NCBI GenBank assembly: GCA_020137815.1
Contig: CM035354.1
Coordinates: 6,944,001-7,008,000 of the forward strand
Length of the DNA: 64,000 bases
Origin: Hormiphora californensis
Taxonomy: Eukaryota; Animalia; Ctenophora
Direction: 5' to 3'
Shown here: positions 43,301 to 52,300 of the stretch, one piece after another
How positions within the stretch are numbered: the first letter of the stretch is position 1
Layout: every line of letters begins with the position of its first letter
The notes under the pieces: model-generated
The model's input: only the letters and a program-made list of their open reading frames with translations
Database searches by the model: none
What the model was told of the DNA's origin: nothing
Program-made: the position numbers and the translations under genes

Positions 43301-46300
43301 TTAACTTATGTTTTGTTGAAAGACCAGTAGGATAAAAACTGTGAAGCTGGGACCAAGTCTCAAGATTCCTGCACTGACGAGGCTTGTTACCTCATGATAC
43401 GTCACGTGACATGCTTGTTGGCGTGGGTTGACAGGGCTTGTTACATCACGTGACATGTGGGTTGACTAGGCTTGTTCTCCTTAGTAAACCTTGATAAGTC
43501 ATGTGATGTGTGGGTTCATGGGAGTTGTTCTCCCTAGTAAATCATGACAAGTCACGTGACATGTGTGGGTGACTAGGCTGATTTCTCGCAATATATATCA
43601 CGTGACTATCATGTTATGTGGGTTGCTGGCTACAGAGAATTCAGGACTATGAGTAAACCATTCTGACAGTGTACTGACTGTCAAGTATCTGTTGCGGGAT
43701 TTGTGTAACTATGTTGCAAGATTGTATGTGTGTACGTGTGTGTGTGTGTGCGTGTGTGTACGTGTGTCTATGTGTGTATGTTGTTAGCTAGTGAGATTCC
43801 AGCTTTAATGTCAAATGTTACTGTCCATCCTCTAATTCGCTTCCCCTCCCCCCATCCCCCCCCCGCTAAATCACCCGGGTGGTACATTCCATGCGGCCTC
43901 CGGCCGCATGGAGCCATGGAGTCCAGTTCCGATCATTCGTGAAGCAGATGATGCATATGATGTAGATGATCCATGTCCTGCATTGGTGGGAGGGGGGGGG
44001 CGATAAAATTGCTTTGAACAAATTGGGATTTTGAGAGTCTCAGAATTGCCTCGTATGTTTCATATGAATTACGTAAAATCATTGTAATCATTAATATCAT
44101 TAGAATCAACAAACGAAAACAGAGCGAGAGAGATTCAAAATGATCGGTATACTGGATTCAAGTCTCAATTTTGTATGTGTGTAACAGCCCGCAACATCCT
44201 ACTTGATACTAAACAAGCTATAGACACCCACACATATTCTTAGTATCTTACAATTTGAATTATATACACATTCCCGCAACATCCCACTTGGCTGTTGTGT
44301 TAGTTAATGATCCCGTGCTTTACAAATTCCATGTTCCGAATGGTACTACCCGATGCTTCATATGAATTACGTAAATTCATTATAAACATTAGATGCAACA
44401 AATGAAAACACATGTTTTAAAGATGAACTACTTGATTTAAGCTAATTTAAATCAGAATCAGAAGAATATTCACTCTCTTCTACACGATTAGAAACATTTA
44501 ACTTGCTATCATCGACACGTTTAAGATAGTCAATACTTTCTGCTATTATGTTGAATAGGTGTATAAATGAGTTTTTGTTCTTGTAGATTATTTTCTTCAC
44601 TTCCTCCCTTGACACGTTTTCCAGCTTAGAGATGAGGTTTCGATCCGATGATGTTAGTTCCTGACTCTGTTGTACAACCAATGGTATGACACCATATTGT
44701 AATCCCATAATAAGTGTTTGAAGTGAATCCAACAGCTGCTTCGATCTTAGTATGTAGTTGAGTTTTCCCTTCTCCAAAAGGCTTTTTATTCGGATAAAGT
44801 TTTCGATGCTTACGCTATTAACAATCGATTTAGAAAACTCTTTATAATGAGGATCGTTAAAGCGAACTTCGAATTCCTGGTTTTGCTTCTTTAAGAGCGA
44901 AATTGTGTTGCTATAACGTGTAAGATTTTCGTTGCATTCTTTTAGCTTCCTTTCATAGCGTCGTTTAAAACCTTGCGTATCATTATTTGCTTGTTGAAGC
45001 TTGTTAGTAAGAGTGCGAATTTGTTTCTTGTAATAATCTAAACGTGATTGGGGTTGGCTGGTTTCCTCATGGTCTCTATGTGTGACAATTGGTTGTCCAT
45101 CGTTTACATCGTCATCACTGGTTTCTATATACGCCCTCTTTCTAGATCGCTTCACCTCTGTAGTATCTAAATCAGAGTCAAATTCCTTGCGTTTCCTACT
45201 TTTAGAATATTCCGTAATACTTCCCCGCTCCCTCTTATCAATTCTCTCATCCCGATCATTCTCTTCTCGTTTTCGCTTCCCAGTATCGATTATATTCCGT
45301 AATCCAACGGCTACAACTGGGATATGATTTGTAGCTTTATGGCGTAGTAAATCACTCGATGATTCAAACACCTCATCACACTGGTTACAAGATACCATAA
45401 TTTAATAATGATCAACTAAGATCGCACTCGGCTATTTATAGGGCACTCACAAGAAAAGATAACCACAATGTCAAATCTAGCTAAACTTTATGTTGATCCT
45501 GCATTTAGCGGAGCCTATACTGGACAAAATGCATTTTTTAAGGCAGCTAAGGAGAGAGATTCTACCACAAAGCGCAGTGCCGTGAAAAAAGTGTTAAAGG
45601 CATCACATAGCTATACGCTCCATAAACCTGTCCGCAAACCGACTAAATATCGCAGAATTTATACAAAATCAATAAATTACCAATTCCAGATTGATCTTGT
45701 GGATATGAGTGCTTATGCAAAGCAAAATAACGGATACAAATGGATCGTCACATGCATCGATACATTCAGCAAAAAACTTTGGGCCTTTAAATTGAAAAAC
45801 AAGACTGCTGCAGCCGTTTTAAAAGCCCTTAAACCATTAATTGAGAGAGAAAAGCCTCAGAAGATTGAGACAGATGATGGAGGAGAGTTTAAAAATGGAA
45901 AGTTTCTGGCTCTATTGGCCAAGCATAAAATTGACTTATTTACGGTTTCTTCCGACAGGAAGTGTGCGATTGTCGAGAGAGTTAATCGCACGCTAAAGAC
46001 TCGCATGTTTCGGGCCTTCACTGCTAGGGGTTCCCATAGATGGGTTGACATACTAGATAAGCTAGTAGATGGATATAATGACAGCCATCATAGAAGCATA
46101 AAAATGAAGCCGAACGAGGTAAACAAATCTAACGAATCCAAGGTTCGTCGTAATCTGTTCCCGAAACTACCAAGAGCAGCAAAGCCTAGATATAAGGTAG
46201 GACAGACTGTTAGAATAACTCGAAAAAAGAATGTGTTTCAAAAAGGCTATGAACAATCTTGGAGTTATGAGGTTTTTGAAATCGCGGCTATAAAAGCCAC

Positions 46301-49300: not shown

Positions 49301-52300
49301 TTCCGGAACCTTTTGGATTTTCGGTAAGATGGCTGAATGCGATCAAATAAATCTTCAGCTCCAGCAACAGCAGCACGTTTTAAGCCTGTTTTAATATGAG
49401 GGGCTGCGGCAGATGTAGCTCCTTTTATAGCCGAGCCAAGTATTGGGAGAGCTCCCCGGAAAAGTGACGCTAAAAAGCTCCCAATACCCTCCCCATTTTG
49501 ATTATAAACATAATATCCGTCCGAATCAAGACCAGCCCCATGTTGCATTATGACACGAGAATACTCATCATCGTTGTTATAGCTAATAGGTTCCATTTTG
49601 AAATACAATAAAATTCATACAGGCTTCTATTTATAGGACAGTGGTCTCATCTCTAAAGTTATAACCGTATCAAATTTATTAGAAAAAGACATAAACTTTC
49701 CGTTAAAATCAAGTATAGAGAGTGAAATATTAGAAAACTCTTTAACTTCTATAGGTACATATGTTGGATTTTGAAACTCATAAAAAGAATAACCTGGACG
49801 AAACTCGAATGGACAGATACATAAAATTCTAGATTTTCTACCATTAATAAAACTGTTTTCAACTATGTTAAGATAAAAGCATCCCATCATTTGTTGCTCT
49901 GTCACTTTCTCATTAATATCATACACATTCCACTCATTAGAGCTCACTTCCTCTGCCTCAATCATCGATAAAAGTGGTGAATTTAGAAACGTTACGTATT
50001 TTGGTAGAAAAATCTGGCAAGTTTTACCCTTTTTCACCTTGCTAAGTCGATCTCCAACATATTTGAGGTCTTTAAGAAAGCCATTACAAGCATTAATAAT
50101 AGCATCCACCACATCTTGTCGTTCCAGATAGAAACCAGGTTCAATAATTACTGTACGTTCACCATGAATTGCATTTTTAGGTTTATAATCTCCCGACATG
50201 ATATCATTGATCATCGCCATGCCATCAAATTGAAGTAAGATGATATTAGTATTATTATCTTTATTAACATTTTGCAGCTCTCCATACGCCACGGATTTGA
50301 CAGCAATGCCCGCTTTTTCATCGAGTTTTATTGGTTCTATAGCCATAGAAAGCTTAGCCGGATTATTCCTTAAGCCACCGGCAATAACAAAGTTTCGAGA
50401 CATTGATTAGTCGAGTGATGGAGAAATATCAACGCCATCCTTTTATACGGACAGAGATTGATCTGGTGTTGTGGCAATCTCTTGATAAAGGGCTATTGTA
50501 ATGACTCTTTTAAGGTTTTTTAAATCTATCTTTGTAGCTACTAAGAGAATAATACAAATACTGATATATAATAAATCCGCTGTATGAGATTTGTCACTAG
50601 GTATTGTATATGGTAGAGGGGAAGATTTACTAGTCAGTTTAATAGTAAAATCTCCCAAAAAAGTTGCATTGTTTGGATTGATTTCGAATATCTCCTCTCC
50701 ATCTACCAACTCCATTGGTTCGCCATTGATTTCTCGTTGTTTCCAGTTAAAACTGAAATTTGATGTAGCTGGATAGTTGTAACGGGTGAAGGCTGTTTCA
50801 TTCATTATTGTAAACTCAATTTTATCATTGGATTGCCATAATAAACTGCTTCCATAATCTCCTTCAATTTTCAAGAAGTAACCATTGTTTGTACTGAATA
50901 CTGCATTTGACAGTAAAGCAAGAAATAACGACAAATCCATAACTAATTCGGTGGAAATGATGAAGATGCATATAAATCACCAATTTGAAACCTGTGTTTT
51001 CGGTTGTTGTTAATAATTTTAATGATTTTACGTAATTCATATGAAACATACGAGGCAATTCTGAGACTCTCAAAATCCCAATTTGTTCAAAGCAATTTTA
51101 TCGCCCCCCCCCCCCCCCTCCCACCAATGCAGGACATGGATCATCTACATCATATGCATCATCTGCTTCACGAATGATCGGAACTGGACTCCATGGCTCC
51201 ATGCGGCCGGAGGCCGCATGGAATGTACCACCCGGGTGATTTAGCGGGGGGGGGGGATGGGGGGAGGGGAAGCGAATTAGAGGATGGACAGTAACATTTG
51301 ACATTAAAGCTGGAATCTCACTAGCTAACAACATACACACATAGACACACGTACACACACGCACACACACACACACACACACGTACACACATACAATCTT
51401 GCAACATAGTTACACAAATCCCGCAACAGATACTTGACAGTCAGTACACTGTCAGAATGGTTTACTCATAGTCCTGAATTCTCTGTAGCCAGCAACCCAC
51501 ATAACATGATAGTCACGTGATATATATTGCGAGAAATCAGCCTAGTCACCCACACATGTCACGTGACTTGTCATGATTTACTAGGGAGAACAACTCCCAT
51601 GAACCCACACATCACATGACTTATCAAGGTTTACTAAGGAGAACAAGCCTAGTCAACCCACATGTCACGTGATGTAACAAGCCCTGTCAACCCACGCCAA
51701 CAAGCATGTCACGTGACGTATCATGAGGTAACAAGCCTCGTCAGTGCAGGAATCTTGAGACTTGGTCCCAGCTTCACAGTTTTTATCCTACTAAGACCAC
51801 AAGCCCCACAGAACCACATATCTAGATATGTATCTACCTTCCTAGATAGAGCTCGGGGAGATAGTGTCAGTATGTTCTCCTCACCAGGACACCTCACATA
51901 CCCACTACCCGTGTTACCCCCTGTTGAGCTAGTGGGTCCAGTATTAGAGCTAGTCGTTATGAGAATGGACTTGGCAGGGAAGACGCTCCTGAACTGCTTG
52001 CAACCGTCTTTGTAGGGAAATGCAAGATACAACCGGTACATTTCCTCAATAAGATCCACATCTGGGACTGATAGTTGAAGTGGTCGGCATACTGTCGGGG
52101 ATGATTTCCTCTCCTCGTGATGAATCAGGGTCCTTCTGTCTTCTAGCATGATAGCTCGGAGATCTTCAAACATCAAAGATCCCTTATCTTGTACCATTAG
52201 AGATTGCTTATATTTGTTGAAAAAAAGATGTTGTGTCCTTTCGACCATCAAGGGTCGTCTGGATCTACTAGGTCGACTAACATCATAACAGAGAGAAACA

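Follow-up and report, generated by a model that had tools for sequence, protein, structure and literature searches.

A compact Maverick-type element without a DNA polymerase in the ctenophore Hormiphora californensis, possibly a member of a persistent mobile lineage

Mavericks (Polintons) are defined by a DNA polymerase of their own, their particles and replication cycle being unobserved in animals (PMC8097293), and they replicate from their ends via a protein-primed polymerase (pPolB) that carries its own terminal protein (PMC11161782). Departures from this plan are on record: polintons that have lost polB, yet apparently remained mobile, are reported from several insects, among them Pieris mannii, their mechanism being left open by the authors (10.1101/2025.02.07.637071), and Tlr1 and the polinton-like viruses combine an integrase and a capsid module without a canonical pPolB, for which they substitute another replication protein, e.g., a helicase fusion (PMC11161782). 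In the present study, we describe a Maverick-type element of 8,467 bp at 43326-51792 of a stretch of 64,000 nucleotides from the ctenophore Hormiphora californensis (GenBank assembly GCA_020137815.1, contig CM035354.1, positions 6,944,001 to 7,008,000, forward strand; hereafter the window, to which all coordinates refer). It has no replication gene, and the reading that we favour, and hold to be moderately probable, is that it represents a persistent mobile lineage of polymerase-less Mavericks, self-integrating and likely self-packaging, which takes pPolB in trans from another Maverick-type element. The observations underlying this reading are the gene content, the exact ends, an integrase-type insertion that duplicated 6 bp and is single and heterozygous, with an empty site on the other allele, and an interior that recurs in other samples whose corresponding site is empty.

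The element starts with AGTAG, ends with CTACT, and is flanked on both sides by the target-site duplication (TSD) AAGACC (43320-43325 and 51793-51798), a six-base match with a chance probability of about 2.4e-4. Its terminal inverted repeats (TIRs) measure 769 bp on the left (43326-44094, forward strand) and 783 bp on the right (51010-51792, reverse strand) over the whole of their alignment, and the first 758 bases of the left arm are without substitution; the two arms differ by three indels (6, 2, and 6 nt) in a GT repeat, a C run, and a G run, and by three mismatches at the inner edge. This confirms the exact ends, the duplication, and the TIRs of about 760 bp that the original prediction, made from the letters of the window, had named. 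When the window was compared with itself, the sequence of the element matched itself alone.

Nine open reading frames (ORFs) starting with ATG and free of stops cover 6,267 of the 6,915 interior bases, with -4 to 77 bases between neighbours, which bears out the predicted uninterrupted and tightly packed set. The largest non-coding gap (44095-44441) is 347 bp long, slightly less than the previously estimated 360 bp or so, and contains stop-free stretches of at most 50 codons; the accompanying claim that no polymerase remnant is to be found there stood. Two modules on opposite strands point inward. The forward module begins with an RVE integrase with a chromodomain (45468-46526, 352 aa; Pfam rve 1.7e-11, chromo 3.7e-8), in which the DDE motifs are present, followed by a packaging ATPase with Walker A and B motifs (46526-47125, 199 aa; Adeno_IVa2 1.8e-4 and Pox_A32 7.6e-4, both weak and under the cut-off), 63-74% identical to the ATPases of relatives. 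Beyond a 77-bp spacer with a TATA-like box (47126-47202) lies ORF4 (47203-47493, 96 aa), kept in relatives, which we take to be PZ-like from its position after atp-pm and a motif; no search named it, and an Atlas search gave no match.

The reverse module carries an adenain-type cysteine protease (47520-47975, 151 aa; adenain 2.3e-5; His, Asp, Gln, and Cys motifs) and the major capsid protein (MCP; 47972-49291, 439 aa), which is by its predicted structure a double jelly roll: the model (pLDDT 87.8) has 261 PDB matches at E<=0.001, the best being the Sputnik MCP (E 1.9e-16, TM 0.61), so that the fold proposed for this protein held when checked. It is followed by ORF7 (49288-49596, 102 aa), basic and with GxG motifs resembling protease sites, which is PW-like by its place between the minor and major capsid genes, and by a conserved ORF at the expected position (49627-50403, 258 aa), presumably the minor capsid protein, as judged from position and motifs only; the latter had no Pfam, PHROG, or PDB sequence match. 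ORF9 (50443-50940, 165 aa), for which a single membrane helix is predicted around residue 120, has similar ORFs in the related loci L026 and L027, and ORF1 (44442-45398, 318 aa, reverse strand) consists, according to its model, of a C2H2 zinc finger, a disordered part, a coiled coil of 60 residues, and an all-helical C-domain. PDB sequence searches with the MCP, minor-capsid, and ATPase alignments returned nothing significant. TATA-like boxes precede five or six ORFs. The PW-like and PZ-like placing of ORF7 and ORF4 follows the layout of vertebrate Mavericks (PMC8097293).

No trace of a polymerase was recovered from the element. A pPolB query from the ctenophore Mnemiopsis leidyi gave a best E of 2.1 in the window, its polymerase part having no match inside the element. 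When 120 pPolB-like proteins were combined into a profile and run against the six frames (with X at stops), the best score was -0.8 bits (E 0.072). Furthermore, none of the nine ORFs matched a helicase, a primase, or any other replication gene; Walker A, PolB, and HUH motifs are absent from the six non-enzyme ORFs, and the ORFs searched include neither an origin-binding protein nor a Rep protein. ORF1, which would have refuted the original prediction had it proved to be a divergent replication enzyme, has 126 relatives and is not a replicase. The model has no PDB structural match at E<=0.001, its best viral fold match is the adintovirus 'GasderminX' (probability 1.00, TM 0.69 on target, with a weak E of 0.064), and the ORF1 alignment found zinc fingers in the PDB and, beyond those, only weak unrelated chains. 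With its zinc finger, coiled coil, and helical C-domain, and without any polymerase or helicase match, ORF1 was rejected as a hidden replicase.

A second gene is missing as well. All five related loci that span the spot between the ATPase gene and ORF4 carry there an ORF of about 115 aa, at the site of pm in vertebrate Mavericks (PMC8097293), and have a spacer of 316-341 bp, as against 77 bp here, where a profile built from the five PM-like ORFs found no match. Because this gene is absent, the virion set is incomplete and the 'full virion module' originally proposed was too strong a term, even though its integrase, ATPase, protease, and MCP are indeed in place. The best match of the PM-like profile fell instead within the C-domain of ORF1 (44535-44663; E 0.017, weak); a second weak profile match (probability 21) links the same domain to the PM-like gene, and the 'GasderminX' fold match overlaps 44535-44663. 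By this resemblance, ORF1 may contain a paralogue of the lost gene.

Thirteen public runs contain part of the interior; no RNA data set was listed among them, which has no bearing on expression. Four of the runs were analysed: X3 and X5 from organism A (two studies), and X9 and X11 from organism B, a related species (two studies). These data are short-read contigs, whose depth is not copy number and was compared solely with the flank in the same run, and the comparison rests on the 32 of 426 contig pieces that are listed; X3 is possibly the source of the window itself and tests the assembly, not independence. In X3, two flank haplotypes stand at depths of 48.6 and 52, their shared node at 92.2, and the junction contig at 39.9, and an empty allele with a single AAGACC, the object of one of the checks proposed earlier, is present. 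Because of these depths and the empty allele, the element in X3 is a single, heterozygous, and recent insertion. The exact interior contigs run at 38.6-49.7, the depth of the inner-TIR contig (77.5) comes close to that of its two exits taken together (43.9 + 38.6), and the sole other flank on the TIR end is the element's own right flank, all nine records being accounted for. X3 contigs span eight of the ten junctions with 0 differences; at the remaining two, variant contigs make the bridge. This speaks against a gap in the assembly, and the listed pieces of X5 and X9 are consistent with it. That the element was inserted recently and already in its polymerase-less form agrees with the empty allele alongside and with TIRs free of substitutions. 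In X3, the integrase and ORF7/minor-capsid regions are also found in related families, whose depth is four to six times as high. No contig covers the outer TIR in X3, X9, or X11, for which a filter or divergence may account, and this was not used as evidence.

In X5, another sample from another study, the sole contig that covers 43153-43308 continues as the empty allele, the TIR end is joined to another flank, and the interior pieces, which differ by 0-7 letters, bridge five of the ten junctions. Since the outer-TIR contigs reach depths of 1,199-3,114, as against 161-352 for the near-exact interior pieces, other elements may share these ends in X5. The insertion site is empty in X9, too, where seven listed pieces, 5.4% diverged and at depths of 86-133, bridge eight of the ten gene junctions and leave no room for a polymerase. 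The left TIR junction of X9 is likely short as well, because on both sides the contigs that lead out of the TIR begin at the same equivalent position, 44044. The integrase-ATPase junction, which lies outside the listed X9 pieces, measures -11 to +3 bases in seven of seven relatives. X11 likewise has an empty site. Thus, the interior is present in X5, X9, and X11 though the insertion site is empty there, and the layout of the element recurs in other samples.

The genes also bear marks of constraint. Synonymous changes make up 32 of the 40 listed differences, as against about 28% expected, and the MCP differs from a Pleurobrachia bachei protein at 10 of 370 residues, whereas neutral change at the 4.6% divergence of X9 predicts about 37. 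With half of the X9 divergence taken as neutral on the branch of the element, about 5.4 stops are expected and none was seen (P 0.005), and of 13 indels, the 12 that are listed either fall in non-coding sequence, are compensated a few bases away, or affect the last codons of ORF1. Together, these comparisons suggest, without proving it, that the genes stayed functional after the loss of the polymerase; the earlier view that this is not a decayed copy is upheld.

Among 4,091 candidates, the MCP has 93 relatives, the closest named one being the P. bachei protein (97% identical), with two further P. bachei types at 62%. In a quick MCP tree of 42 rows, the P. bachei types and one further protein, together with its cluster mates, form a clade of six rows with support of 99; by this placement, the host is likely a ctenophore of Pleurobrachia type. 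Of the two trees suggested at the outset, the integrase tree, with eight rows, was uninformative. M. leidyi has the same MCP type on five contigs: in one gene model, a pPolB-like region and the MCP are joined, and a PF03175 protein is found at a distance of three locus tags from another copy, its contig being of the same length. In the M. leidyi gene models P0107, P0143, and P0104, MCPs of one 90% cluster adjoin pPolBs that are 62% identical to each other. Scans of IMG/VR with the MCP, the MCP alignment, and the ATPase gave no match, and the integrase led to one unrelated match at 28% (L030, excluded from later locus scans); a GTDB scan gave one fragment of 1.2 kb. The loci L026 and L027 carry four to six accessory ORFs to the right of the protease gene and no pPolB, and their contig ends are not TIRs. 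An L026 ORF of 144 aa, at one point read from a motif as the terminal-protein domain of a pPolB, was dropped, as it had no longer relative, no Atlas match, and no match to the 120 pPolB-like proteins.

Set against the described systems, the element shares with animal Mavericks/Polintons (adintoviruses; PMC8097293, PMC8502044) its TIRs, 6-bp TSD, AGT-type ends, RVE integrase, ATPase, protease, and double-jelly-roll MCP, as well as the order mcp-pw-Mcp-pro and the two inward-pointing modules. It differs from them in lacking pPolB and the PM-like gene, in the end motif (AGTAGG, compared with (AGT)2 or (AG)3 in Mavericks), and, compared with intact vertebrate Mavericks, in its size of 8.5 kb as against 12.7-24.6 kb (12,723-24,620 bp; PMC8097293). 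Without pPolB and pm, and too short, it plainly falls outside the autonomous Mavericks, and just as plainly derives from them. The marine relatives L003, L004, L025, L026, and L027 and the M. leidyi genes belong to the same families (23-74% identity), L004 with the same inward-pointing gene order; the marine relatives retain the PM-like ORF and the M. leidyi copies adjoin pPolB, unlike the present element. Non-coding, non-autonomous Polintons were reportedly described by Kapitonov and Jurka in 2006. The polintons of Pieris resemble the element in being flanked by TIRs, in having lost polB, and in being apparently still mobile, but they carry LINE or gypsy cargo and have highly similar polB-bearing sisters within one species, whereas the element is compact and cargo-free, with a layout apparently common to two species labels at about 5% divergence (10.1101/2025.02.07.637071). 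Tlr1 and the polinton-like viruses likewise pair an integrase with a capsid module, but in place of the canonical pPolB they bring a different replication protein, of which the element has none. In the accessible portions of the literature, which also included PMC4028283, PMC10748475, PMC11131425, PMC11296320, PMC8363768, 10.64898/2026.10.13.758929, and 10.1101/2022.07.12.499685, with Repbase and most subscription journals outside the scope, we found no Pleurobrachia Mavericks and no compact, cargo-free lineage of polymerase-less Mavericks. What is new is a compact layout that was apparently kept across two species with its genes constrained.

Under the favoured reading, a copy of the element would leave its site, be replicated from the TIR ends with a pPolB and terminal protein provided in trans, and reintegrate through the integrase that it encodes, with duplication of 6 bp; packaging would fall to its own ATPase, protease, and capsid proteins. 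Packaging by its own proteins would explain the constrained genes, provided that the polymerase donor, which could be a full-length Maverick or a polymerase-only partner, supplies no compatible capsid. In favour of such a donor, related elements of the ctenophore M. leidyi adjoin pPolB, and the runs analysed also contain related families of greater abundance. Several points weigh against this reading. A full helper would supply capsids too and should relax selection on the capsid genes of the element, and the particles themselves may be incomplete, as the PM-like gene is missing. The 40 listed differences are a subset of 718; the integrase accounts for 34, and many stem from related families of higher abundance. 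The P. bachei MCP (P0002) is not tied to a polymerase-less copy, and when the missing-stop test is restricted to the five virion genes, it falls short of significance (P 0.06-0.12). Contigs built from the short reads of several copies can, moreover, be mosaics. X3 has no second element sharing the terminal 30 bases, and X11 bridges four of the ten junctions, has no contig over 50464-50509, and includes an 867-nt contig that carries ORF9 and the beginning of the right TIR and then runs 354 letters into unlike sequence (50464-50510), which could stem from a longer parent or sister element, or from an insertion. As for the donor, no Pleurobrachia pPolB was found among the best 120 of 5,597 matches or in 12 clusters opened from them, a negative weakened by the limits on length, and none in 30 related loci, including the 14-kb L026 and the 11-kb L027, loci that may all be incomplete; the M. 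leidyi MCPs linked to pPolB fall in a different subclade of the quick tree. Of the satellite-like nature proposed for the element, the spread of a layout without a replication gene found support in short-read contigs, and the borrowing of replication met with no Pleurobrachia helper.

Since constrained capsids are hard to explain with a helper that supplies capsids, a polymerase-only partner was considered: a special form of the favoured reading, rather unlikely in itself, would be a two-part Maverick, in which an integrase-capsid segment under selection across the species split is accompanied by a capsid-less polymerase element sharing its ends. This would fit the constrained capsids, the outer-TIR excess in X5, and the 62%-identical pPolBs beside near-identical MCPs in M. 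leidyi; no such partner was seen, and X3 has none on the same TIR end. We regard as unlikely, on the other hand, that the element arose by recent internal deletion from a near-identical Maverick with pPolB and was copied once or a few times, the signal across species being a mosaic and the constraint having accrued in the parent. Its single copy in X3, the unlike letters beside ORF9 in X11 with the uncovered stretch at that place, and the X5 depth excess, by which other elements possibly share the ends, would suit such an origin, for which the highly similar polB-bearing sisters in Pieris provide a precedent. However, the inner-TIR depth in X3 is fully accounted for by two short junctions, X9 bridges eight junctions at similar depth (86-133), the one it leaves unlisted, integrase-ATPase, is equally tight in the relatives, and pPolB and the PM-like gene are both absent, at the same junctions, under two species labels.

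Decidedly unlikely, in our judgement, is the view that no viral polymerase is needed, whether the RVE integrase moves the element by cut-and-paste, as in Ginger-type transposons, or host enzymes copy an excised form that is then packaged. The intact DDE motifs, the low copy number at a polymorphic site, the failure to find a helper, and the TATA-like and CACGTG boxes, which fit host transcription, are all compatible with it, and Ginger-like transposons are cited as a source of the Polinton integrase (PMC6431247). Yet cut-and-paste leaves unexplained why 3 kb of sequence for capsid proteins, protease, and ATPase should stay constrained, the TIRs of about 770 bp are near-identical, as end-primed copying predicts, and no origin-binding or Rep protein is at hand. 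Finally, TIRs and related families can confuse assemblers, but that a longer element was collapsed and its polymerase region dropped is highly improbable, given the X3 contigs that match the window without difference across eight of the ten junctions, with variant contigs over the other two, and the agreement of X5 and X9 where listed.

A polymerase-less lineage of the kind favoured here would separate two questions, namely what maintains the capsid genes and which agent replicates the genome. It suggests that replication in Mavericks operates in trans and that there are satellites or split genomes in this group. The two-part form, if true, would amount to a segmented, integrating double-stranded DNA virus of animals. 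Additionally, the insertion is polymorphic in wild animals, which makes donors, new insertions, and particles accessible by observation alone.

Some further features of the element and its surroundings deserve description. At 43392-43615 and in the mirror region of the right TIR, the repeats contain subrepeats of 44-53 bp, and each TIR holds four CACGTG boxes, as against about 0.27 per kb elsewhere in the window; the left TIR also includes a GT microsatellite. At the inner TIR edge, which together with the adjoining gap occupies 44055-44441, the bases 44055-44093 are repeated at 44353-44391, and a motif of about 70 bp occurs three times at the inner edges (44055-44421 and 50984-51049), its two left copies 298 bp apart. 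From the contig coordinates, the 298 bases between the left copies appear to be absent in organism B, which would leave a single left copy there.

The insertion probably lies within a short intron of a host PET-LIM gene (prickle/testin-like), whose PET-domain exon lies on the reverse strand at 42940-43045 (PET 2.9e-7), with a LIM match (1.9e-13) at 41672-41875; an earlier reading of this left flank as a Gypsy gag was dropped, the region being the PET exon. Elsewhere in the window, two fold-back elements, at 34917-36270 (594-bp arms, 99.7%) and 25793-26585 (a 793-bp palindrome, 86%), both start and end with TA and are likely non-coding transposons. A tandem duplication at 4782-9581, 88-95% identical, holds two copies of a glycine-rich ORF, a LINE-like reverse-transcriptase ORF lies at 18151-19485, and an uninterrupted Ser/Thr kinase ORF is found at 56560-57588.

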